From an uncultured Syntrophomonadaceae bacterium (GTDB taxonomy: Bacteria; Bacillota; Dethiobacteria; DTU022), in the NCBI GenBank assembly GCA_964389365.1, contig CAYMDO010000002.1:19268-83267 (forward strand): 64,000 nt of DNA, read 5' to 3'. Made by a program: the position numbers and the translations under genes. Positions 7,175-51,919 of the stretch are shown in pieces; the first letter of the stretch is position 1; each line of letters begins with the position of its first letter. The notes under the pieces are model-generated. The model was not told the DNA's origin, searched no databases, and worked only from the letters and a program-made list of their open reading frames with translations.

Positions 7175-8287
7175 TTAAACCCCTGAGCAGAGCGGAAACC
7201 CGTTTTGGTCGTAGAAGCCGTAACGGTGAACTGCTTTAACCATGCTGATATAGTTTTCTGCTTTGACCCCTGGGTGGATGGTGTTTGAAGAGGCTAAAAT
7301 ATAGCCGCCTCCGGGTGCGGCTGCTTTAATTGCCTGCCGTACTTCTTCTTCCACCGCCGCCGGGTCTTTTTTGACCAGCGTTTCGAGACAGTCGATATTA
7401 CCCATTAAACAGATCTTGCTGCCGTATTGCTCCTTAACGGCAGCCAGATCCATGCACTGCGGCTGTATGGGGTGAATGCCGTCAAAGCCGATTTCCGTAA
7501 AATCATCAAATAACTTATGGTGATTGCCGTCGGTGTGCTTAAATATTTTCAGGCCCTTGTTGTGGACGTAATTAACTATTTCCCGGTAGTAAGGTTTTAA
7601 ATATTCGCGAAAATGACCGGGTGAAACCAACAGGTTTGTGTTGTGGGCTAAATCACCGTCCAGCGAGACAATGTCTGCTCCGAGGCGGATGCCCATTTCC
7701 AGCGCCTCGATTGTATAATCGGTGGCGATCCTGGCCAGTTGGTGGACCAGAATCGGGTTTTCATAGTAGGCGTAAAGCAGTTTATCCATGCCGCCAAGCA
7801 TATTCCAACTGCGGCGGAAGGGGCACTGCAGGCTGAGCACCAGGGCCCGCTCCCCTTTAAATCTTGCCGCACAATAGATCAGGGTCAGCAGATCTGTTTC
7901 TTTAATCGCCGGCGGCCTGAATTGTTTCAAATCGGCGGCCCCCTTAACCGGGCCATCGACCACAGTGGCTTCGCCCACCGGGCTGAGTTTAAAAGTAACG
8001 CCCCAGTCGTCGCGGAAAAGGTCATCGCCAATGAATTCGGAGGCAGGAAAAACCCTTAAAGTCAGCCCGTCAATATCAAGTTCTTCGATAAAAAGAAGCA
8101 GGGCATTGAACAGCTTTATCTTGTTTTCGTCGTCTAAGTTTTGGATGTAGCCGGCAGCGGGAAGATCATCTGTAAAATGACGGGCAATATTGACAACAGA
8201 AGATTCGTTATAGGCCAGTTCCCAGTGGGGTACACGGTCAGGTACCTGCAAAGATAGTGCGGCGATCATTCTTTCCCTGCCGTTCAA
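7175..8287 (-). CDS. uroporphyrinogen decarboxylase (URO-D) family protein, MtaA/CmuA-type corrinoid methyltransferase-like
   Basis: 370 aa; overall similarity to methylcobamide:CoM/THF methyltransferase family proteins of methylotrophic anaerobes. Confidence 0.7.
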   Translation of the reverse strand: MNGRERMIAALSLQVPDRVPHWELAYNESSVVNIARHFTDDLPAAGYIQNLDDENKIKLFNALLLFIEELDIDGLTLRVFPASEFIGDDLFRDDWGVTFKLSPVGEATVVDGPVKGAADLKQFRPPAIKETDLLTLIYCAARFKGERALVLSLQCPFRRSWNMLGGMDKLLYAYYENPILVHQLARIATDYTIEALEMGIRLGADIVSLDGDLAHNTNLLVSPGHFREYLKPYYREIVNYVHNKGLKIFKHTDGNHHKLFDDFTEIGFDGIHPIQPQCMDLAAVKEQYGSKICLMGNIDCLETLVKKDPAAVEEEVRQAIKAAAPGGGYILASSNTIHPGVKAENYISMVKAVHRYGFYDQNGFPLCSGV

Positions 8288-8444: not shown

Positions 8445-9245
8445 TTAGAGATAGAGGTTGCGCCTGCTGAATACTATTACGCCCAGGCTGTAGAGAACTA
8501 CTGCAACGGCGGCAAAGGGCAGGCAGATACCGAGTAATTCCTGCTTGCCGCTTACGATGGCGGTGGCATCGAAAAGTGAGTAAAGGGTTAGATACTTAAG
8601 CCAATCGTTGTTTCCGCCGATATTTTTTAACATATTGACGATAAAGAAGAAGACCGGGATTCCGCCCCCGAAAGCGAGGGAATACTTCGATTCATTAAAA
8701 ATACAGGAAAAGAAGAAGCAGATTGAACTGACGGCCAGGGTCAGCAAAACTGTTACCAGGTTTAGCTCAGTGAAAGCGGGGATATCCATTTCGCCCGGGA
8801 ACATCGCTTCACTGACAGCGATACCGATCGCCGCGGTTAATACCAGCAGCAGGGAGACGCTTAAAGCCAGGTAAAAGCCCTGGGTTGAAATAATCTTTGC
8901 CCGGCTGTTCGGCGTCGCCAGCAGAAAAGCCATTGACCCCCGGTCCACCAGGACCGCCACCAGGCGGTTGGCCGCAATAATACAGTAGATCAGCGGAAAC
9001 ATGGTCACCAGGAAGCCGTAAAAATAAACAGCCATAAAGGTTGTCAGGCTGGTTACCGGCATGTCATAACCGAAGGCCTCCATCATACCCTGCGGCAGGG
9101 CCTTCACATAAAGGTTCATGGCACCTATCGTTTCCGGGTCGTACATGCCAAGCATGATAACCATGTACATTAAGAGGACGGCAAAGAAGATCAGAAAAAC
9201 CACCCAGTTTGATTTTGCTGTGGCTTTGAAGAGTGAAAAGTTCAC
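8445..9245 (-). CDS. ABC-2 family transporter permease
   Basis: 266 aa with 6 predicted TM helices. Overlaps the upstream ATPase gene by 4 nt (operon). Confidence 0.65.
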   Translation of the reverse strand: MNFSLFKATAKSNWVVFLIFFAVLLMYMVIMLGMYDPETIGAMNLYVKALPQGMMEAFGYDMPVTSLTTFMAVYFYGFLVTMFPLIYCIIAANRLVAVLVDRGSMAFLLATPNSRAKIISTQGFYLALSVSLLLVLTAAIGIAVSEAMFPGEMDIPAFTELNLVTVLLTLAVSSICFFFSCIFNESKYSLAFGGGIPVFFFIVNMLKNIGGNNDWLKYLTLYSLFDATAIVSGKQELLGICLPFAAVAVVLYSLGVIVFSRRNLYL

Positions 9246-10489
9246 CAGGGCATAACCTCCTGTCCGTAATATTTAAGGAAAAGCTGTTCCAAACCCTGGG
9301 TCACAACATCCAGACCGGTTACGCTGCACCGGGCAAGCGCAGCGGCAAACTGGTTGTAATTGTCTTTAACAATCACCTCGACAGTATTTTTACTGGCTTT
9401 TCCGAGCTCGAGGCCGGCGCGGCGCAGGTGCTCAATGTCCTCCGGTACGGCAAGGGAAACCAGGTATGTTTTGCGCTGTGATGATTTCAGCGAGTGGACA
9501 TCTTCCAATGCAACCAGCCGCCCTTCGCGGATAATGCCGGCCCGGTCGCAGGTGCGGTAAGTTTCCTCGAAATTGTGCGAAGACATGAGAAATGTTTTTC
9601 CCCGTTCCTTTTCTTCCAACACCAGCTCGACAAATTCGTTTTGCATCAGCGGATCGAGGCCGCTGGTCGGCTCATCTAATATATAGACAGCAGGATCATG
9701 CATAAAAGCTGTGACAATGCCCAATTTCTGCTTCGTCCCCTTGGACATCTTGCGGATGCGGCCGGCTGGGTCCAGTTCCAGGCGGTCCAGCAGGCTGTCG
9801 CGGCGTTTTTTATTGTTATCGCCCCTTAAAGCAGAAACCAGGTTCAGAAACTGGGTGCCGGTCATCTCGTCAAAAAAGGTTATTTCGCCGGGCAGGTAAC
9901 CGAGGCTTCGCTGGATCAGGTCGGAATCGCGCCAGCAGTCAAGGCCGTTGATTAAGCAGCTTCCTCTGGTTGGCCTGGTAAAACCGAGCAGGTTGCGGAT
10001 AGTTGTTGTTTTGCCGGCCCCGTTAGGTCCGAGAAAACCGAAGGCTTCGCCCTGGCTGACGCTGAAGGTAAGGTCAAATATACCCTTGCCGCTTCGATAT
10101 ATAAATGTCAGCGATTCGATCCTGATCACTTGTTTTTGCCCTATCGGCCCGGCGTTAAGCTTACCCTGCTGTATTTCTGCCAGCGGTTTGATAAACCTGC
10201 CCTGTTCCCAGAGGCCGTCCGCAACCCTGCCGTCCGGGCTTAAATATTTTCCGCAGCCCTCCCGCTTGCCCTTATTTATTTCCCCCACGTAAACGCCGCC
10301 ACTTGGATAGATAACCATGCCCCGGCCGTGGGGTTTTCCTTCCTGCCAGTCTCCTTCATAGCGGGTTCCGTCAGGCAAAATAAGGCTGCCTTTTCCCTGC
10401 GGCATACCGGAAGCGGTTTCTCCGCAGTATTCGCCCCCCAGCCAGGCTATGCACTTTTGCCCTCCGGGCCGGTTTGTTCCAACCATCAA
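9242..10489 (-). CDS. ABC transporter ATP-binding protein with N-terminal MORN-repeat domain
   Basis: Residues ~20-110 carry repeated YEGDWQEGKPHGRG / YVGEINKGKREGCG MORN-type units. Then Walker A GPNGAGKTT, signature MSKGTKQKLG and Walker B ILDEPTSGLD. Confidence 0.8.
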   Translation of the reverse strand: MMVGTNRPGGQKCIAWLGGEYCGETASGMPQGKGSLILPDGTRYEGDWQEGKPHGRGMVIYPSGGVYVGEINKGKREGCGKYLSPDGRVADGLWEQGRFIKPLAEIQQGKLNAGPIGQKQVIRIESLTFIYRSGKGIFDLTFSVSQGEAFGFLGPNGAGKTTTIRNLLGFTRPTRGSCLINGLDCWRDSDLIQRSLGYLPGEITFFDEMTGTQFLNLVSALRGDNNKKRRDSLLDRLELDPAGRIRKMSKGTKQKLGIVTAFMHDPAVYILDEPTSGLDPLMQNEFVELVLEEKERGKTFLMSSHNFEETYRTCDRAGIIREGRLVALEDVHSLKSSQRKTYLVSLAVPEDIEHLRRAGLELGKASKNTVEVIVKDNYNQFAAALARCSVTGLDVVTQGLEQLFLKYYGQEVMPW

Positions 10490-10859: not shown

Positions 10860-11130
10860 AGTATTAGCAGGAGAGGTCAGTTACAGGAGCTCTGAAACAA
10901 TCCTGAAGGAAAAACTGGACGGACTGCCCTTTTCCAGGTTATATCTGATTGTTACGAACAAAGGAGCGTAATTATCACCACCAATCTGGAGTTTAGCAAG
11001 TGGGTTCAAATCTTCCATGAAGAGCAGGTAACCACTGCGATGAACAATCGCCTGGTCCATCATGGCTATCTCTTAATTTTTGATGGCCAAAGTTACAGAA
11101 TCAAGAATTCGTTGATGAAAGTTGAAGCGT
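10860..11130 (+). pseudogene. istB: IS21-family IstB helper ATPase remnant (frameshifted C-terminal fragment)
   Basis: Frame translation ...YEQRSVIITTNLEFSKWVQIFHEEQVTTAMNNRLVHHGYLLIFDGQSYRIKNSLMKVEA* matches the IstB C-terminus (ITSNLPFSEW...DRLVHH...GESYR). The upstream part is in other frames and no IstA is present. Confidence 0.55.
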
Positions 11131-11490: not shown

Positions 11491-12453
11491 ATGAAAAAAA
11501 TTGCGGTTATCACCAGCGGCGGAGATGCGCCGGGCATGAACGCGGCAGTACGGGCGGTCACACGTACGGGAATCTATCTCGGTTACCGGGTATGCGGAAT
11601 CCAACGCGGTTTTGCCGGTCTGCTTAACGGCAATCCGGTAATTGATTTCGAACTGGGCTCGGTTGCTGATATTATCCAGCGCGGCGGAACATTTCTTCTT
11701 ACCGCCCGATCGCCGGAAATGTATCAGGCTGAATCACAGGCGAAGGCCGCTGAGCATTTGAAAAACGAAGGCGTTGACTGCCTGATTGTCATTGGGGGCG
11801 AGGGCTCATTTAAGGGGGCGATGACCCTTGAAAAACTGGGGGTACGGACGATTTGTATCCCCGGGACAATTGACAATGATATAAACGGCACCGATCTAAC
11901 AATCGGTTTTGATACGGCTGTCAACACCATTCTTGATGCAATCAACCGGCTGCGCGATACGGCCACCTCGCATGAAAGAGTTTTTCTGCTGGAGGTGATG
12001 GGGCGCCATACCGGTTACCTGGCCCTTTCTGCCGGCCTGGCGGGCGGCGCTGAGTCGATTGTGGTCCCCGAGATTGAGTACAACCTTGCTGAAATTTGCT
12101 GCAGGATCATGCGCGGCATAAAGAGGGACAAAACGCACAGTATTATTGTCGTTGCTGAAGGTGCTGCCAATGTATATGAAATGAACGAAGCAATCAAACA
12201 GCAGATCAATGTTGAAACCAGGGTTACCGTGCTGGGGCACATTCAGCGCGGCGGCAGCCCCAGCGCAGTTGACAGGCTGCTCGGCAGCCGGATGGGGGCT
12301 GCTGCAGTAGAATGGCTGGCTGAAGGCAGGAGCGGCTATTTTACAGCTCTAAAAGGGCAGGATATTGTCCCGGTTTCAATAGACAGCTGCTTTGCCGAAC
12401 GGAAGCCGTTTCCGGAAGATCTATATCGCCTGGCGCTAATCCTATCCCGCTAA
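11491..12453 (+). CDS. pfkA: ATP-dependent 6-phosphofructokinase
   Basis: MKKIAVITSGGDAPGMNAAVRAV N-terminus plus GGEGS and GTIDND motifs. The ORF's upstream extension (11245-11490) is judged non-coding. Confidence 0.9.
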   Translation: MKKIAVITSGGDAPGMNAAVRAVTRTGIYLGYRVCGIQRGFAGLLNGNPVIDFELGSVADIIQRGGTFLLTARSPEMYQAESQAKAAEHLKNEGVDCLIVIGGEGSFKGAMTLEKLGVRTICIPGTIDNDINGTDLTIGFDTAVNTILDAINRLRDTATSHERVFLLEVMGRHTGYLALSAGLAGGAESIVVPEIEYNLAEICCRIMRGIKRDKTHSIIVVAEGAANVYEMNEAIKQQINVETRVTVLGHIQRGGSPSAVDRLLGSRMGAAAVEWLAEGRSGYFTALKGQDIVPVSIDSCFAERKPFPEDLYRLALILSR

Positions 12454-12532
12454 ATGTCCAATATCTATAATGGTGCAGTAATATTCCGTCAAGTTATTCT
12501 TTTTAATAACATAGCTCAGGAAGGGGACTTAT

Positions 12533-14233
12533 ATGAATAAGCCTGAAATTTATTACGAGGTTAAGGCGCAGCGGGGTCCAAGCCTGCGCTGCAAGGGTTG
12601 GAAGCAGGAAACTATCTTAAGGATGCTGGAAAACAACATGGAGAACGCCGAAAAACCTGAAGAGCTGGTTATTTACGGCGGCATCGGTAAGTGCGCGCGC
12701 AACTAGGAATCCTATCATGCCATTGTCAAGGCTTTAAAAGAGCTGGAAAATGATGAAACGCTGGTCATGCAGTCGGGTATGCCGGTGGCTGTATTCAAAA
12801 CACACCGCCTGGCCCCGCGGGTGGTGATGGCCAACACAAATATCATGAAGGCCGACTGGCCCACCTTTTACGACCTGCAGGATAAAAACCTGACTATCTT
12901 TGCCCAGTATACTGCCGGCCCCTGGGAATATATCGGCACACAGGGGGTAATCCAGAGGACCTTTGAGACCCTTTCGGCGGTGGCCAGAAAATGCTACGGA
13001 GATTCGCTGGCCGGTAAAATATTGCTGACTGCCGGCGCCGGAGGGATGGGAGGCAACCAGACCCGGGCGATGACCATGCACGGCGGGGTAGCAATTTTAT
13101 GTGATGTAAACCGTGATATAATCGAGCGCCGGATCAGCAAGAAATTTATTGATGTTATGGCCGGTTCGCTGGAAGAAGCGATCAGTATGGCTCAGGACTA
13201 TGCTGCCAGGAATGAAGCGATCGGCATCGGCCTGGTCGGCAACGCAGCGGACATTTTTGAAGAAGCGCTTAAAAAAGGGTTTAAACCCGATATAGTTACC
13301 GAAATGTGCCCCTGTCATGATCCTTTCTCCTACATTCCTTCCGGGTACAGCCCCCGGGAGGCGGATGAATTGCGGGCCGCAGACCGGAACCTTTACCTGG
13401 AAAAGGCGCGCGAAACGATGATCAGGCAGCTTAAAGCTATGAACCGGTTTTACGGGCTGGGGGTGCCGACTTTTGAATACGGCACCAGCATTCGCAAGGA
13501 ATGCCGTGACGGCGGGATGCCGGAAAAGGAAGCTATGACGATTCCCGGTTTTGTAGCCGAGTACATCAGGCCTCTCTTCTGCGAAGGCCGCGGACCCTTC
13601 CGCTGGATCTGCGTTTCCGGGGAGGCCGAAGATTTGAGGAAGCTTGATGATCTCTGCCTGGAAATGTTTGCCGACGACCTGCTCGTTACCCGCTGGATCA
13701 AGCTGGCCCGCCGGGATATCCCGATTGAGGCGCTGCCGGCCCGGATCTGCTACCTCGGTTTCGGCCAGCGCAAAAGATTTGCCCTGGCGGTCAATGCCCT
13801 GATCCGGACCGGTGAGGTGAAGGGCCCGGTCGCATTCTCCCGGGATAACCTTGATTCCGGCTCCATCGTTAACCCCACCTTCGAATCGGAGAATATGCCG
13901 GACGGCAGCGACCTGATTTCAGACTGGCCCATGTTGAACGGCCTGCTTAATGCCGCGGGGATGTCGGACTTGATCGCCATCCAGGCAAATTATTCGATGG
14001 GGGAAGCGGTTCACACCGGGGTAACGATGATTGCCGACGGAACTGACGAGGCTGATTTACGGCTTTCTGTCTGCATGACAGTCGATTCCGGCATCGGCGT
14101 TGTACGCCATGCCCAGGCCGGTTACGAAACGGCGAAGGAAGTAGCCGATGGCCGGGGCAAGCTGACCGGCGAAAATATAAAAGTGCCGCTCTGGTGGATC
14201 CCGAAAGCCACCTTTGGGCCGCAGGATCTGTAA
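12533..14233 (+). pseudogene. hutU: urocanate hydratase interrupted by an in-frame TAG at 12704-12706, at the position of a conserved Trp
   Basis: Full-length similarity to HutU ([16 protein letters not shown] versus B. subtilis GGIGKAARNWECYHAIV; downstream FCEGRGPFRW etc.). There is an RBS AGGAAGGGG before the ATG at 12533. TAG is a genuine stop elsewhere in this window. Confidence 0.8.
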
Positions 14234-14259
14234 ACACCCGCCGCTCGCAAAATATTTGA

Positions 14260-14966
14260 AGCAGCAGCCGGGCGACCTGTAAAGAGGCAGCAGTAGCCGG
14301 GCTTAACCTTGCTGAATACTGTGACGCCTGGTGTGATGATGGTTACTACAGCGCCGCCGAGTGCGAAAAGATCTTAAATATTGCCCTGGATTATGGACTC
14401 AAACCCAAAATTCACACCGATGCCTATTCTTACATTGGCGGCTCCGACCTGGCGGCTGAAATGCAGATGGTTTCGGCCGATCACCTCAACTACACCCCCC
14501 GGCGGTGATGAAAAAACTGTCGTCTGCAGGAGTAGTCGGGGTACTGATGCCCGCGCTCGATTTCGCCGTCAGGCATCCGCGCCCCTTTGATTACCTGGCT
14601 ATGAAAGAGCAGGGTTTAATTGTGGCGCTCGCCACAAACCACTGTCCCGGCTGTTGGGCCGAGTCGATGCAGTTTGTAATGGCACTGGCCTGCCGTCTCT
14701 ATCGGATGAGCCCGGCAGAGGCGCTGCATGCAGCGACTGCCGGGGCGGCAAAAGCGCTTGGAATCGATAAGGATTACGGCAGCCTGGAAGCCGGTAAATT
14801 TGCGGATTTTCAAATCTGGGATGTTCCAAGTTACGAGCATGTTATCTGCCGCCTCGGCGCCAATGTTGTGGAAAAGGTAATTAAAAAGGGTAGATTGCTG
14901 GTTGACAACAGCATCAGCGAGATTGCCCTCGAGTCCGGTGATGACCGGAACCGCTTAACTGATTGA
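14260..14966 (+). pseudogene. hutI: imidazolonepropionase, C-terminal half only, with a frameshift near the C6 run at 14494-14499
   Basis: Two frames read LAEYCDAWCDDGYYSAAECEKILNIALDYGLKPKIHTD...SADHL and then GVVGVLMPALDF...LATNHCPG...SYEHV, matching HutI residues ~200-410. The N-terminal ~200 codons are absent. Confidence 0.75.
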
Positions 14967-14993
14967 AATCATGGCAGCAAGGAGTAAATAACG

Positions 14994-16519
14994 ATGACTG
15001 TAACCATCGATGGGAAAAGCCTTACCCTGGAACAGGTTGTCAGGGTGGCCAGGTATAACGAAGATGTTGAACTGGCAGAAACAGCTTATGACTGCATCAA
15101 TCGCTCGCGGGAGCTGGTTGAGCGGATCGTGGCGGAAAAGCGTTCGGTTTACGGTGTTAATACCGGTTTTGGCCTGCTCAGCAATGTTTCTATCACCGAC
15201 GAGGAGATCAATTAGCTCCAGTACAACCTGGTTGTCAGCTGCGTGGCTGGTGTTGGCGAACCGTTCCCGGAAGAAGTGGTACGGGCGATGCTTTTTTTGC
15301 GTTCCAACTCGCTGTCCTCCGGCTGCTCAGGGGTCAGGCCGATCATTGTTGAAACGATGCTGGCCATGCTCAGCAAGGGAGTCCACCCCGTGGTGCCGCA
15401 AAAAGGTTCAGTCGGCGCCAGCGGTGATTTAGCCCCCCTGGCGCACCTGGCGCTGGTGCTCATCGGACGCGGTGAAGCCCTGTATAAAGGGCGTTTGGTG
15501 CCGGGCGGAGAGGCTATGAAACAGGCCGGGATCGAACCCGTTGTGTTAAAGGCGAAGGAAGGCCTTTCCCTTTGCAACGGAACCCAGGCGATGACCGCAG
15601 CCGGCGCTCTCGCTGTTTACGATGCTTTAAAGATGGCACGCTACGCGGATCTCTTTGGCGCGCTTTCGGCAGAGGCACTGGAGGCAGTGTTGATGGCGTA
15701 CGATCCAAAAATCCATGCTGTCAGGCCTCACCCGGGCCAGATCGAAACCGCCGCCAACCTCAGGGAAATGTTAAGGGGCAGTGAGATCCTGGCCCACCCA
15801 TCGTCAAGCCGGGTTCAGGATGCCTACTCGCTGCGCTGCATGCCCCAGGTGCACGGGGCTTCCAAGGATGCCATCGACTATGTGAAGCAGGTAATCGAAA
15901 GAGAAATTAATTCGGTTACCGATAACCCGCTGGTCTTCGCCGATACCGGCGAGGTGCTTTCCGGGGGCAATTTTCACGGCCAGCCGGTAGCCCTGGCCCT
16001 CGATTTCTGGCTATTGCCCTCGCCGAGCTGGCCAATATTTCGCAGCTCAGGGTTGAAAGGCTGACCAACCCGGCGCTGAGCATGGGGCTGCCTGCTTTCC
16101 TGATCGAAAAAAGCGGGTTGAACGACGGCTTCATGGTTGCCCAGTATACCGCCGCCGCCTTAGTCAGCGAAAACAAGATTCTGGCCCATCCGGCAAGCGT
16201 GGATTCCATTCCCACATCGGCTGACCAGGAAGATCACGTCAGCATGGGTACCACGGCGGCCCGCAAATGCCGCGAAGTGCTGGAGAACCTGCGCTATGTC
16301 CTGGCTATCGAAGCTATCTGTGCCTGCCAGGGGATCGACCTCAGAAAGAAAAAGCCGTCACCCGTGCTGCAAAAAGCCTGCCGTATAATCAGGGAGAGGG
16401 TCAGCTTTATGGCGGCGGACCGGGAAATGAGCAAAGATTTTGAGGCGGTGGTAGCGTTGATTAAGGATGATGCCTTTAATATTGCAAATTTGCTGGGCGG
16501 GCTTGCGGGTAAGGTGTGA
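14994..16519 (+). pseudogene. hutH: histidine ammonia-lyase with an in-frame TAG at 15213-15215 (Gln position) and a 1-nt deletion frameshift near 16006
   Basis: Three ORF pieces cover full-length HutH, including the MIO motif [22 protein letters not shown] aligns to canonical EEQLEQLQLNLV. The frame switch is at [16 protein letters not shown]. Confidence 0.8.
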
Positions 16520-16640
16520 AATTTTAGCTATGCATGAAAATCTTTAATAACTGCTTAAAGTAGTATTAACATGGAAACATCTAGCTATTATAATAAAAAT
16601 GTAAAAGAAGGCAGGTCCATTAATCTGCAGGAAGGATCTG

Positions 16641-16979
16641 GTGGTTGTCGGAAAATATACGGACTTCACTCGTGCTGTAATCGGTCTTTTGATGTCTGCG
16701 GCTGGAGGGTTGGCGTTTGTGTTGGCTTTTCCGCCCTACGAAATTTGGCCCCTTGCATTTATCGGCTTTATTCCTGTCCTGCTGGCTCAATACAGGATTA
16801 TGCCGCCTAAGCTTTCATCCCTGGCTTCGGCGGCGGCCATCGGCATTTGGCTGCAGGGTTATCTGGGGCCGGTTTTTGCACCGATTGGAACTTTTATGGT
16901 TTGGCTGGCGCTGGCCGGGTTGGCATTTTTTACATGCGGGAGCTCCTGGCTGATCAAAAAAGGCAGGCAGCAAACATAG
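16641..16979 (+). pseudogene. apolipoprotein N-acyltransferase (Lnt) N-terminal fragment (~110 aa of ~500)
   Basis: GLAFVLAFPPYEIWPLAFIGFIPVLLAQYR resembles the Lnt N-terminus [20 protein letters not shown]. The ORF ends after 112 aa and no CN-hydrolase domain follows. Confidence 0.4.
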
Positions 16980-17045: not shown

Positions 17046-18149
17046 TTGCTTAACACCGTGCACAAGCTGTATTTCCGTGATGCGAGAAATTTGGATCAAA
17101 TCGAAGATCAGAGCATTGACCTGGTCGTCACATCACCGCCCTATCCGATGATCGAAATGTGGGACGAACAATTTTGCGGCATGAATCCTTTAATCGGTTA
17201 TAACCTCGAAACCGGTGACTATAACGGCGCGTTTGAAGCGATGCACCGGGTCCTTGATGGGGTCTGGCACGAGCTGTGGCGTGTTATGAAAGAAGGAGCT
17301 TTTGCCTGTATCAATATCGGTGATGCTACCAGGACTGTTAACAACAGATTTCAGCTCTTTGCGAATCATGCCAGGGTTCAGCGCAAGTTCCATGAGCTTG
17401 GGTTTGACACCCTGCCGCTTGTTATCTGGCGCAAGCAGACAAACGCCCCCAATAAGTTTATGGGGTCCGGAATGCTGCCTGCCGGCGCTTATATTACTTT
17501 AGAGCACGAATATATACTAATATTCAGGAAGGGCGGCAAAAGGCTATTTAAAAGTGCCGAAAGTAAATCGAGGCGGATGCAAAGCAGTATTTTCTGGGAA
17601 GAACGCAATGCCTGGTTCTCCGACCTTTGGGATTTCAAAGGGGTAAAACAGGGTACCAACAGCAGAGAACTGCGAAGCCGCACTGCTGCTTTTCCTTTAA
17701 CCCTGCCATTTCGCTTAGTCAACATGTTCTCGTTAGTCGGGGACAGGGTTCTTGATCCATTTATAGGTACCGGCACAACTGTGCTGTCGGCAATCGCCGC
17801 CGGGAGAAATAGCGTTGGTTACGAGTTGGATGAACGTTTTGCCCCGGTGCTGCAGGAGCTGATAATGAACAGTTTGCCTGCCCTGCAAAAAGTTAACATT
17901 GACAGGGTTCATGCCCATCTCGCTTTTATTCAAACCTGCAGGGCCGGAAGCAAAGAGCTGAAATACCGCAATTCTTATTTTGGTTTTCCCGTGATGACAG
18001 CCCAGGAAAAGGAACTGCAGCTGTGCTTTGCCAGCCAGGTTGAAATAGGTGGTGATCACCTTTTCCGAGCCTCATATTATGACGACCATTTTATCAAATC
18101 AATCTCTCCGAAAGACCTGATCCCGCGTGTCAGGGGGACGGGGGTTTGA
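17046..18149 (+). CDS. beta-class DNA methyltransferase (N4-cytosine or N6-adenine), orphan
   Basis: Motif IV VTSPPYP at the N-terminus, followed later by motif I DPFIGTGTT (beta permutation). No adjacent restriction endonuclease gene was found. Confidence 0.8.
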   Translation: MLNTVHKLYFRDARNLDQIEDQSIDLVVTSPPYPMIEMWDEQFCGMNPLIGYNLETGDYNGAFEAMHRVLDGVWHELWRVMKEGAFACINIGDATRTVNNRFQLFANHARVQRKFHELGFDTLPLVIWRKQTNAPNKFMGSGMLPAGAYITLEHEYILIFRKGGKRLFKSAESKSRRMQSSIFWEERNAWFSDLWDFKGVKQGTNSRELRSRTAAFPLTLPFRLVNMFSLVGDRVLDPFIGTGTTVLSAIAAGRNSVGYELDERFAPVLQELIMNSLPALQKVNIDRVHAHLAFIQTCRAGSKELKYRNSYFGFPVMTAQEKELQLCFASQVEIGGDHLFRASYYDDHFIKSISPKDLIPRVRGTGV

Positions 18150-18193: not shown

Positions 18194-18864
18194 TTACTTA
18201 AAAAGATCGAAAAACTCTTTTAACAGCAGTATCTTGTTGTCTTCTACTTTCAGGCGGCCGGTCGCCATCCTTGTAACCGGGCTGTTCAGGCCAAGGGCCA
18301 TATCTTTCAGCAGCGGTTCCGCAACGCTGATTAACAGGTCGGCTTCCCCGTGCAGCCCGGGCCCGATTGCGCTGCTGAGCAGGTAGTTTTCAGACAGGCA
18401 GGTTCCAAATAGGCGCATGCCCCGGACATATAGAATCTGCTGCAGCTGGCCAAACTGCTCGGAGAGGAAAGCTTCAGTTTTTGCATGCGCGTACATTTCT
18501 GCTTCATCATATCCGGAGATGAAAACCCGGGTGCCGAGAATGTGATCAAGGTGACCGTAAGTATAAATAACTGCCGCCAGGTGCTGGTCGGATATTTTAT
18601 CAAACTCAGCTTATATTTCCGCTGCGGCAGCGAGACTTTCTGTGGTATCGATAATAATGTTTCCACCGGATGTAACAATCAGTATGCTGTTGGCGGGAGC
18701 ACAACCGATTGCGACACAGATATTGCCTGTAACCTGCTCGACCCTTTTTCGAACCGCCCGGCCTGCTGTATTAAATCCAAAGGTGTAAGCGGAGCATACA
18801 TATCTGCAGCGGGCGGTTCATTTGCCGGCTGCTGCCCGTTTTTGCTTCCATAGAAAAAGTACAT
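18194..18864 (-). pseudogene. MBL-fold metallo-hydrolase pseudogene (frameshift near 18680 and in-frame TAA near 18618)
   Basis: Minus-strand translation gives MYFFYGSKNG...QAISVSQSVVLPPTAY. A shifted frame continues VTSGGNIIIDTTESLAAAAEI*AEFDKISDQHLAAVIYTYGHLDHILG (degenerate HxHxDH) and runs to the stop at 18194. Confidence 0.5.
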
Positions 18865-19191
18865 ACTTGCAGCTATGACCAGGAAGCCTGCCGCGAAAAA
18901 ATCATGTTCGGGAAGAGCTGAAACAGGTCCATTTTGTTCGCCCCTTGCTTTATTGCCACCTGCAACGCGATCTTCCCGCGATCAACGGCCGGTGCAACCT
19001 CGAATTTACCCCAGGCTGTACATGCGATTTTCAAACGGCGCCGGCGCTCATTTTACACAATTATATTATAATAAAATAAAGTATATTACTATTGCGATAA
19101 TTCGGAATGAGCTAAATAATTGCTTGACTTCATCGGTAAGATATATTACAATATAAATAAATTTACAACATAAAATAAGGGGGCCAAGGAT

Positions 19192-19670: not shown

Positions 19671-21014
19671 GTGAATATGGATGACTACGGAAATACGCCT
19701 AAAGGAGAAAAGCAGACTATACCGTGGATGAAAGGGACCTACAGCGGGCAGTTACGGCAGGGTATACCCTCGGGCATCGGCCGCCTGCAGCTGCCCGACG
19801 GAGCCGGTTATGCAGGAGAGTGGCTTAACGGAAAGCCTCACGGCGAAGGCACAATATACTATGCGAGCGGTGCCTCCTACCAGGGTGAATTTTGGAATGG
19901 CAGGCAGCATGGTTACGGCACCTATACCAACCCTGGCGGGTCGATGACCAGGGGTTTCTGGGAAGAAGGCCGGTTTGTCAGGGCCAAAGACCTTTACAAG
20001 CCAGCCCCACAGGTTACTAAATCTGCAGGGGTGCATGGCCGCTCGGCGTCCGCGGAGGCGGATCGCTTTATTGATACCGGCTTTCAAGGCCGGGACGCAG
20101 AAAGGAACAGACGGTTTTCCGAAGCCTTCGACCGGGCCGGAACAGGCATGACAAGAGGGCTGCCGGCGATTGCTGTCAGTGGTTTAAGCCACTGGTACGG
20201 GAAGTTGGAGGCTGTAAAGAATATCAGTTTCGAGGTTTTCCCGGGCACAATTCTTGGCTTTCTTGGGCCGAACGGTGCCGGTAAATCTACTACTATCAAA
20301 GTTCTTACCGGGCAGCTGCCCCTTATGGGCGGCGCGGCACAGATCCTCGGACGGCCAGTAGGGCGTGATGACCCTCATATCCAATCGCAGATTGGAGTTT
20401 CTTTTGAAGAGAAAAATCTCTACCTGGAGATGACGGCGCTTGAGAACCTGGATTTCTTTGCTTCCCTTTTCGGCATTAGAAATCCCGGATCCCTTCAGGC
20501 CCTGCAGCGGGTCGGACTGGCCGACCGGGCCAGGGACCGCGTTGCCAACTACTCCAAGGGTATGCGGCAGCGCCTGATGATTGCCCGGGCTTTTATAAAC
20601 AAGCCGACAGTGCTTTTCCTTGACGAACCGACCGACGGGCTTGACCCGGTTACCGCTACCGCGATCCGCAAAACAATTAAGGAAGAAGCCGATCGGGGGG
20701 CGGCTGTGCTGCTGACCACCCATAATATGTTTGAAGCCGATGAACTTTCCGACAGGGTTGCGTTTATCAATGAGGGTCAGATTGTGGCCCTCGATACGGC
20801 GGAAAATCTGAAGATAAAATACGGCAAGAGAGCGGTAAGGGTGAGGCTGCGCGACGGCAGCGGGGTTCGCGAAGAAGAGCTGCCCCTGGACGGGGAACAA
20901 TCATCCTCCCGCCTCAGCAAGCTGGCTGCCTCGCCTGACCTGTTGACCATTCACACTGAAGAAGCGACCCTGGAAGCGATCTTCATCCACCTGACCGGCA
21001 GGGGGCTGGTATGA
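19671..21014 (+). CDS. ABC transporter ATP-binding protein with N-terminal MORN-repeat domain (paralog of 9242..10489)
   Basis: N-terminal repeats YAGEWLNGKPHGEG / YQGEFWNGRQHGYG; then GPNGAGKST, signature YSKGMRQRL and Walker B LFLDEPTDGLD. Confidence 0.8.
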   Translation: MNMDDYGNTPKGEKQTIPWMKGTYSGQLRQGIPSGIGRLQLPDGAGYAGEWLNGKPHGEGTIYYASGASYQGEFWNGRQHGYGTYTNPGGSMTRGFWEEGRFVRAKDLYKPAPQVTKSAGVHGRSASAEADRFIDTGFQGRDAERNRRFSEAFDRAGTGMTRGLPAIAVSGLSHWYGKLEAVKNISFEVFPGTILGFLGPNGAGKSTTIKVLTGQLPLMGGAAQILGRPVGRDDPHIQSQIGVSFEEKNLYLEMTALENLDFFASLFGIRNPGSLQALQRVGLADRARDRVANYSKGMRQRLMIARAFINKPTVLFLDEPTDGLDPVTATAIRKTIKEEADRGAAVLLTTHNMFEADELSDRVAFINEGQIVALDTAENLKIKYGKRAVRVRLRDGSGVREEELPLDGEQSSSRLSKLAASPDLLTIHTEEATLEAIFIHLTGRGLV

Positions 21015-49284: not shown

Positions 49285-49785
49285 TCAGGTGCCGAGCATG
49301 CCCCGCACGATCGAGCCGCTTATTTGCAGGCTCATCAGCAGGAAAAAAGTGTTCTTAACTGCCGGGGTGAAGATAAACAGAATATGTTTCAACAGCTTAA
49401 ATAAACCAAGTACGATGTAAATTATGCCTGCTACCAGTAAGGCTGATATTATACTTCCGCGGATCTCGGCCAGTGGTTTTCCAATCTGGGGGGCAACTGA
49501 GCCGATAATGATCAGCACGTTATACCACATGGCCCCGATGCCTTCAAAGACCGGCAGGCGGTGGCCGAAGTACAACTGGATGATCGAGAAGAGGCCGCAA
49601 AAGAAGAAGGTGCGCTGGATAAAACAGCTGATCTCAAGCTGATCCAGCCCGAGCCCGGTGCCGACCACGCTTGGAATTACGGCAAGGACAGTCAGTGAAA
49701 AAATAACCCACTGCAGGCTGTAAACTGCTGTTTTACTGTGCGGCGGTATATCTTCAGCTTGATATAGTAGTATTTCCTTGCTCAA
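49285..49785 (-). pseudogene. NCS2 (xanthine/uracil permease) family N-terminal fragment, 166 aa
   Basis: TM-rich segment with NCS2-like N-terminal helices. The ORF stops after ~166 aa, whereas the family is ~430 aa. Confidence 0.4.
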
Positions 49786-50182
49786 TTGATCTCCCCTGAT
49801 AAGCCGTGCTTTTTACTTATTAAAATCCGGCGTTGATCATGCCATCAATAACAGGCGCAGGCAATAAAACCGGAACGATGAGCCGCCGAAACCCTATCAC
49901 CCGCAACCCTTGGAAAAGGCAGGGCCGGGTAAAAAGCAGCATTCTGCCGGTGACAGATGCAGGAAACAAGCACCTGTGTTGCGTATTTAATAGAGCAGGT
50001 AAAGTGCCCGGTGGATCTTAAAATCGCCGCCCGCAGGGTTGCCGCGACTTCTAACCCTGACCGGCCGCCGTTGCAGTATGCGGTACATGATATAAAAGGT
50101 GCTATTGCTTTTTCAGGCGGCGGAGGGTAGGTTAAACTTTCGGCGACTGCCGCTAAAACGGGCAGAGAGGAGAAGTAACAAA

Positions 50183-51073
50183 ATGAAGGTTTTAATGTGT
50201 GTACCGAATATCAGCGAAGGCAAAAACCTGGCGCTAATCGAAAACATAGCCTTGGCAATAAAAGAGACCGGTCAGGTCAAACTGCTTGAGGTTGCTTCAG
50301 ACAAAGATCATAACCGCTCAGTATTCGGTTACTTAGGCGGTCCGGCGGCTGTGCTGGAGGCGACAAAAAAGCTAACCGAACTGGCGCTGGAAGGTATTGA
50401 CATGAGAGCGCACCATGGCGATCACCCCCGGATGGGCGCGGTGGACGTGGTGCCGTTTATCCCGATAAAAGATATCAGCAGCGAAGAAGCCCTGCTGGCA
50501 GCTGCCGAATTCGGAGATTATCTGGGCGGGAAAGGGGTACCGGTCTATTTTTACGAGGATGCGGCTTCGAAAGCCGAACGTAAAAGCCTGGCTGATATCC
50601 GCAAAGGCCAGTACGAAGCGCTGGAAGAAAAGCTGAAAGATGAAAGGTGGAAGCCTGACCGCGGGCCGGCCCTGTTTCACCCAAAAGCGGGGGCAACTGC
50701 CGTCGGGGTAAGGTTTCCCCTGATTGCCTTTAACGTTAACCTTAACACTGCCAATATGGAGGTAGCCGATAAGATTGCCAGGAGCGTCCGCCACTTAAGC
50801 GGCGGCTACCGTTACGTGAGGGCTATCGGGGTTAACCTGGCCGAGCTGGGCCAGGTCCAGGTGTCAATGAACCTGACCAATTATTCAAAGACCCCGATCC
50901 ACCGTGTGTTGGAAACAATACGCTCGGAGGCGGCAAGATACGGGGTAACTGTAGCGGCAACGGAGTTTGTCGGGCCGGTACCTTTTAATGCCCTGGAAGA
51001 ACTGGTTCGTTTTTACCTGCAGGCCCATAGTTTTACCGCGGGCCAGGTTATTGAAATGAACCTGCTTGACTGA
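50183..51073 (+). CDS. ftcD: glutamate formimidoyltransferase (formiminotransferase domain)
   Basis: MKVLMCVPNISEGKN N-terminus typical of FtcD; about 296 aa. Confidence 0.75.
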   Translation: MKVLMCVPNISEGKNLALIENIALAIKETGQVKLLEVASDKDHNRSVFGYLGGPAAVLEATKKLTELALEGIDMRAHHGDHPRMGAVDVVPFIPIKDISSEEALLAAAEFGDYLGGKGVPVYFYEDAASKAERKSLADIRKGQYEALEEKLKDERWKPDRGPALFHPKAGATAVGVRFPLIAFNVNLNTANMEVADKIARSVRHLSGGYRYVRAIGVNLAELGQVQVSMNLTNYSKTPIHRVLETIRSEAARYGVTVAATEFVGPVPFNALEELVRFYLQAHSFTAGQVIEMNLLD

Positions 51074-51193: not shown

Positions 51194-51269
51194 GGGGCGA
51201 ATAGCTCAGCGGGGGAGCACCTGCCTTACAAGCAGGGGGCCGTAGGTTCAAATCCTACTTCGCCCACCA
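51194..51269 (+). tRNA. tRNA-Val (anticodon TAC), CCA encoded
   Basis: GGGGCGAAUAGCUCAGCGGGGGAGCA ... anticodon loop CUUACAA ... GGUUCAAAUCC ... CCA. Confidence 0.85.
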
Positions 51270-51285
51270 TTGAAACACGATAAAT

Positions 51286-51320
51286 AAAGGGCTTTAGGGC
51301 CCTTTATTTATTTTTTATTT
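51286..51320 (+). terminator. rho-independent terminator after tRNA-Val
   Basis: AAAGGGC-tttagg-GCCCTTT hairpin then a T-rich run. Confidence 0.6.
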
Positions 51321-51321
51321 G

Positions 51322-51560
51322 GTGCGCCCGGCATGGGCGTTAGCTTGGCGGTGAAAGTCCGCTGTGGGCTTGGCAGTGGGAACCACTAGCTGACGGCAAG
51401 GGTGTCCGCCGTGAGGCGGAATCTGAAGGAAGCCTAAGGCAAAATCCCGGCCCGATGAACAAGAACCGCATACAAGGCTGAACAGGGGTGGACGAGTTTG
51501 CCAAACAAAACGAAGTCCGACACTGCCCGGCGGGTTGCTTGATTATGCTATAAAAGTCAA
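51322..51560 (+). mobile_element. group II intron 5' fragment (domain I start), apparently truncated
   Basis: Begins GTGCGCCCGGCATGGGCGTTAGC immediately after the terminator T-run. This is near-identical in pattern to the Ll.LtrB 5' end GTGCGCCCAGATAGGGTGTTAAG. No domain V or intact RT ORF was found downstream. Confidence 0.5.
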
Positions 51561-51919
51561 AGCTACTGTCAGAAAAAAAGTGTTGTTTGAAATTGACCTC
51601 TTAATGGAAGGCGCTTTTAAAAGCGAAACCCTGGGTAAAGAGGATTTTAAAAATATGGTTGAAATAAATGGTTTAATTACTTTATCCCATATTTCTCGCG
51701 CTTATATTATTAGTGTAACAGCGCAATCAGGAATCAATCCGCCGGTCAGAGTGCCAATGCTAAATATCAATAAGCTGATTGGGCAGAAGAAAACGAATTA
51801 CAAGAGCTAAGATAAGTTTTTACATGGGCCGGCGATTGCTGATTGCATGCAAAGTTAAGCATAAAGAAACCGGGCACGACCAGACTCTTAAGTATTCGGC
51901 ATCGGTGAACATCTCCTCT

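Follow-up and report, generated by a model that had tools for sequence, protein, structure and literature searches.

The DNA examined here is a 64,000-nucleotide stretch (the window) from an uncultured lineage of the Bacillota, the sister group of a clade of metagenome-assembled genomes (MAGs) labelled Syntrophomonadaceae. It includes a cluster of three histidine-utilisation genes in the order hutU-hutI-hutH, all on the forward strand. Immediately upstream is an intact 6-phosphofructokinase gene (pfk, 11491-12453, forward strand), the product of which is 90.6% identical over 320 aa to the PFK of the related locus L001; the order pfk-hutU-hutI-hutH, with pfk directly preceding hutU, is common to both. 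The enzyme of the last pathway step, glutamate formimidoyltransferase, is encoded 34 kb from the cluster by an intact ftcD gene (50099-51073, forward strand), a full-length member of its family that scores 412.5 bits against the TIGR02024 equivalog model (cut-off 221) and covers positions 2-297 of 298.

The hutU (urocanate hydratase) pseudogene occupies 12533-14233 on the forward strand. It has its full length of 566 codons, and the interval is a single open frame apart from one internal stop, a TAG at 12704-12706. The translation is 93% identical over 566 aa to intact 566-aa orthologues, and the two parts on either side of the stop jointly provide complete coverage, in order, of the Urocanase_N, Urocanase and Urocanase_C models (PF17391, PF01175 and PF17392), with E values from 1e-13 to 7e-71. 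The TAG falls at codon 58 (Trp58) and represents a change from TGG by a G-to-A transition. In a codon alignment, this site is TGG in 12 of 12 close relatives, and at the protein level all 145 homologues have W in the corresponding column. The urocanase domains are thus all present in a frame that is interrupted, and hutU, as it reads in this assembly, is a pseudogene of the urocanate hydratase family and not a functional member of it.

The hutI (imidazolonepropionase) gene survives only as a remnant of its C-terminal half, at about 14290-14966 on the forward strand. Against the TIGR01224 equivalog model (377 positions) it matches positions 176-242 and 248-376 only, its counterpart in the solved structure of the B. 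subtilis enzyme (2bb0, chain 2bb0_A) is residues 213-415, and it is approximately 75% identical to intact orthologues. In the window, 72 nt separate the hutU stop from the first hutI base that can be aligned, as compared to approximately 690 nt in the relatives; with L001 as the reference, approximately 616 nt are absent (a deletion of ~620 nt), and roughly 205-215 N-terminal codons are missing. In the amidohydrolase superfamily, the HxH metal ligands are located in the N-terminal half of the protein, and in the HutI sequences of the relatives they appear as DCHTH. This motif has no counterpart in the hutI of the window, and what is left does not amount to a full-length TIM-barrel amidohydrolase with an N-terminal HxH. 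The deletion junction was also sought at the nucleotide level, for which the available relatives are too divergent; codons 14-21 of the L002 hutI, one of six targets, gave a match of 23 nt (4 of 200 shuffles), which is not significant once multiple testing is allowed for. The remnant also contains a -1 frameshift at 14495-14501 (forward strand), at or just after a run of six C residues. The frame changes between 14499 and 14502, where the window has 2 nt and the relatives have one full codon.

The hutH (histidine ammonia-lyase) pseudogene, at 14994-16519 on the forward strand, spans 508 codons in three pieces and is 82-87% identical to intact orthologues. These pieces match positions 1-63, 66-332 and 334-466 of the Lyase_aromatic model (PF00221, 466 positions), and the GASGDL motif, the Ala-Ser-Gly portion of which forms the methylidene-imidazolone (MIO) cofactor, is retained in the translation. 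The gene therefore has the domain and the motif of its family in a frame that is not uninterrupted. The first break is an in-frame TAG at codon 74 (15213-15215, forward strand), where the closest clade has Gln (CAG or CAA) and the outgroups have CTG; family-wide this column is variable (K/L/Q). The second is a 1-nt deletion within 16005-16009 on the forward strand, which codon alignment with the relatives places between 16007 and 16008; GAT TTC -TG GCT in the window corresponds to GAT TTY CTG GCY in the relatives.

Four of these lesions had been described in an earlier note on this DNA, and they withstand closer comparison, at positions correct to one or two nucleotides: the full-length hutU with TAG at 12704 in place of a conserved Trp, the hutH TAG at 15213 in place of a Gln, the single-nucleotide loss near 16006 and the absence of the first ~200 codons of hutI. 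The note had also placed a frameshift at the C6 run in hutI. That frameshift is present, but the run itself lies at 14495-14500, one base to the right of the 14494-14499 first given, and the frame changes at its 3' edge. Every hut gene in the window thus carries at least one disabling lesion, and none would encode a full-length protein from this sequence. The steps affected are the conversion of histidine to urocanate (HutH), of urocanate to imidazolone-propionate (HutU) and of imidazolone-propionate to formiminoglutamate (HutI).

Relatives were obtained from a scan of one genome per GTDB species, which returned 74 loci. The closest of these, in which HutU is 93% identical to that of the window, come from MAGs with the label Syntrophomonadaceae or Bacillota. 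A scan of JGI metagenomes and two large protein searches returned nothing closer (best HutU 93%, best HutH 87%, the latter from a search of 5.8 billion proteins). Exact-match queries with the hutU fragment, with PFK and with P0121, an entry identical at 100%, gave no hits, and the one identical PFK is encoded on a single NCBI contig of 104 kb, most likely the source itself. The earlier note had proposed a comparison with orthologous hut loci; in all close relatives examined, the order hutU-hutI-hutH is conserved and the three genes are intact, at 566 aa (hutU), 423-438 aa (hutI) and 499-508 aa (hutH).

Given that the hut lesions are known from one assembly of this organism, and that the source appears to be a single draft contig, probably from a MAG, the possibility that they are assembly or consensus artefacts, and that the living organism has an intact hut operon, has to be weighed. 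This alternative, already raised in the earlier note, draws on two further observations, namely that one frameshift adjoins the C6 run and that the remaining hut codons look fully constrained. However, random error does not account for five lesions (four small ones and the ~620-nt deletion) within 4 kb when approximately 50 other genes in the window, totalling 50.5 kb in a Pfam survey, include none that is split by a stop or a frameshift. Those of the ~50 that match a family cover its domain models essentially end to end, and none of the 95 homopolymer runs of six or more that they contain is frameshifted. If the four small lesions were placed uniformly, the chance of all of them falling in the hut cluster would be about (4/54.5)^4 = 3e-5. 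Both TAG codons are clean transitions, the hutH frameshift is outside any homopolymer, the loss of half of hutI is not a base-calling error, and the pseudogenes nearby (described below) represent real decay in the region. A motif common to the two TAG sites, such as might accompany methylation-linked systematic error, was sought by eye; only the change of CTG to CTA is common to both, and no such errors occur elsewhere in the window. Scans for repeats at the lesions and for promoters and terminators gave nothing informative. General sequencing error is therefore an unlikely cause, judging from the clean state of the other genes, and an artefact confined to this locus retains a small probability. 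Because the lesions are clustered in 4 kb, the ~50 other genes are clean and all of the relatives are intact, genuine pseudogenisation is the best explanation, and hutU-hutI-hutH is very probably a genuine, recently inactivated histidine-utilisation operon.

A different way to retain function would be recoding, in which the genes are still expressed through read-through of TAG or insertion of pyrrolysine, combined with programmed frameshifting. TAG is the codon at both internal stops, pyrrolysine is inserted at TAG in some Bacillota, and a gene for an MtaA/CmuA-family methyltransferase is present in the window at 7178-8287. Against this, TAG is the ordinary terminator of 7 of 50 intact genes in the window, and a six-frame scan of the window found no real gene with an internal TAG besides hutU and hutH. 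The only tRNAs in the window are those for Met, Glu and Val, with no tRNA-Pyl, suppressor or CUA-anticodon tRNA among them. In its TAG use, its internal TAGs and its tRNAs, the window accordingly lacks the marks of pyrrolysine use or TAG recoding. One of the two stops replaces the invariant Trp of hutU, and the two frameshift sites have no slippery motif in common. The N-terminal half of HutI is lost, and therefore the third step would be dead, and the pathway incomplete, however the stops and frameshifts are read. Continued expression by recoding is thus extremely improbable.

With real inactivation as the preferred reading, the neighborhood of the cluster is informative. The hut genes are located within a stretch of ~9 kb (10.5-19.2 kb) that contains other gene remnants. 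Upstream of pfk, the last ~70 residues of an IS21-family IstB protein are encoded at 10896-11129 on the forward strand (PF01695, positions 170-236 of 238, E 1.7e-19). The sequence that follows hutH (16605-16976, forward strand) may be the N-terminal part of an Lnt-like gene, a weak assignment with a PF20154 match at E 1e-4 and 22.9 bits, short of the gathering score. This fragment is followed by an intact N4/N6 DNA methyltransferase gene (17046-18149), and beyond that gene is a truncated metallo-beta-lactamase-fold pseudogene on the reverse strand (18197-18817), with an in-frame TAA at 18611-18613 and a PF00753 match (E 2.6e-9) that extends across the stop. Elsewhere in the window, an NCS2 permease is truncated, with 149 of 419 profile positions remaining, and a fragment of a group II intron is present without its reverse transcriptase. 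Altogether, of the approximately 60 genes in the window, some 7 are remnants. Decay extends beyond the hut pathway, and non-hut remnants are found on both sides of the cluster.

The surviving codons provide some indication of how long ago the genes were lost. Pairwise dN/dS values between the window and its relatives are 0.03-0.04 for hutU, 0.06-0.07 for hutH and 0.12-0.18 for the hutI remnant, although this test is blunt, with synonymous sites saturated even against the nearest relatives (dS above 1). Between intact relatives, the values for hutU are much like those of the window (0.02-0.05), and those for hutI (0.06-0.11) are somewhat below. Among columns conserved to 97% or more, the window deviates once per gene (G142R in HutU, Y to C in HutI and N to S in HutH); this is within the range of intact homologues, while the closest relatives have no such deviations. 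When Tajima relative-rate tests are run with true outgroups and the counts for hutU, hutI and hutH are added up, 50-68 changes are private to the window and 34-51 to the relative, with p values from 0.004 to 1.0. In the relative-rate controls, L077, a relative with intact genes, has an excess of similar size, and the excess in the window, which is at most modest, is therefore no larger than normal variation between lineages. Tests of the comparison with L155 in which L001, L002 or L077 served as the outgroup were discarded as invalid, since the window lineage branches outside that clade.

A rough expectation can also be set for the number of missense changes. Approximately 3% of random substitutions in the hut genes would be nonsense and 71% missense. 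Under neutrality, ~50 missense changes, or at any rate some tens, would be expected to accompany the two nonsense changes; the excess actually observed, 0-30, agrees with this figure only near the lower bound of a wide Poisson interval. As the surviving codons are still constrained and the rate tests show no clear acceleration, inactivation of the hut genes was probably recent, with little neutral time having elapsed. The earlier note had taken the different lesions in three adjacent genes as a sign of relaxed selection and loss of the pathway. Real pseudogenisation is indeed supported; relaxation, however, would follow from the multi-hit pattern and not from any measurable shift in rate, given that neither dN/dS nor the relative-rate tests show clear acceleration, and the decay is not specific to the pathway, with non-hut remnants on both sides and ftcD intact.

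How the operon came to be lost can be outlined with some caution. One lesion may have abolished the pathway, and the hutI deletion is a plausible first hit. After the loss of one step, the remaining hut genes would have been useless and neutral, or possibly harmful through the build-up of intermediates, and further hits could then have followed. The setting may have been an IS-associated erosion of the region, perhaps of the whole genome. Because the hut cluster sits among other gene remnants, including the IS21 piece, its loss appears to belong to an erosion that is local or extends genome-wide, and the pathway need not have been a specific target. Selection for the shutdown of histidine catabolism, either to spare histidine or to avoid the build-up of imidazolone-propionate and urocanate after the hutI deletion, would be the adaptive counterpart to such passive decay. 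It would be in keeping with multiple independent hits to one pathway in a short time with few other changes, and with the retention of ftcD. However, the decay of adjacent non-hut genes fits non-specific erosion, and in sequence from one genome alone, adaptive and neutral loss look alike. Adaptive shutdown is thus considered very unlikely, and passive erosion remains the favored account of this locus.

For metabolic reconstruction, the organism should be treated as lacking the ability to degrade histidine via the Hut pathway. Caution is needed in annotation, as homology searches still detect hutU, hutH and hutI in addition to the intact ftcD. The loss of the hut genes beside an IS remnant and other pseudogenes is also a hint that this uncultured lineage carries an increased load of pseudogenes. 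The locus offers a clean case of an operon lost very recently through several hits, and it raises no new biological question.

The canonical Hut genes of the Bacillota comprise hutH, hutU and hutI together with ftcD or hutG. The window has members of the same families, in the hutU-hutI-hutH order also found in L001, but unlike in the canonical systems, all three frames are broken. The position of ftcD also differs: it is unlinked in the clade of the window, whereas in the outgroup relatives L003, L006 and L012 it is located between hutI and hutH. What is observed here is ordinary pseudogenisation of three thoroughly characterised enzyme families, and erosion of the hut pathway already has precedents (PMC3231929). 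In Streptococcus thermophilus strains, hutH and hutU are kept while hutI and hutG are absent (PMC3231929). The likeness is that of an incomplete histidine catabolism in a pseudogene-bearing genome; however, the S. thermophilus strains lack whole genes, whereas the window retains three genes that are still recognisable and were disabled only recently.

The decayed stretch of the window (10.5-19.2 kb) includes a second pseudogene, unrelated to the hut genes, which lies 2 kb from the histidine ammonia-lyase pseudogene hutH. This truncated gene of the metallo-beta-lactamase fold (18197-18981, minus strand) is interrupted in frame by a TAA stop codon at 18611-18613, and upstream of that codon there is probably an additional frameshift. 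A hydrophobic ORF of 124 amino acids (16605-16976, plus strand) may also be a gene fragment; its match to the apolipoprotein N-acyltransferase N-terminal domain (PF20154, E 1e-4) is weak and falls below the gathering score. At 10896-11129 (plus strand), only a C-terminal remnant of the IS21-family helper ATPase IstB is preserved (PF01695 positions 170-236 of 238, E 1.7e-19), with IstA and the remainder of the element absent, and the intact 6-phosphofructokinase gene starts approximately 360 nt downstream.

The stretch is bracketed by two paralogous ABC ATPase genes, each with N-terminal MORN repeats and with ABC-2 permease partners of its own, found in inverted orientation relative to each other (9242-10489, minus strand, and 19671-21014, plus strand). 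The G+C content is 0.54-0.56 in the hut cluster (12001-16000), higher than the 0.47-0.50 of its flanks.

Elsewhere in the window, a truncated NCS2 purine/pyrimidine permease gene (49288-49785, minus strand), in which only positions 1-149 of the 419-position profile remain, is flanked directly by a GH18 gene and, on the other side, by the intact glutamate formimidoyltransferase gene ftcD. A group II intron D1-D4 segment is detected at 51195-51588 (plus strand; RF02001, 89 bits), with a tRNA-Val 135 nt before it. Because no reverse-transcriptase ORF follows this segment, it represents a degenerate or ORF-less copy of a group II intron.
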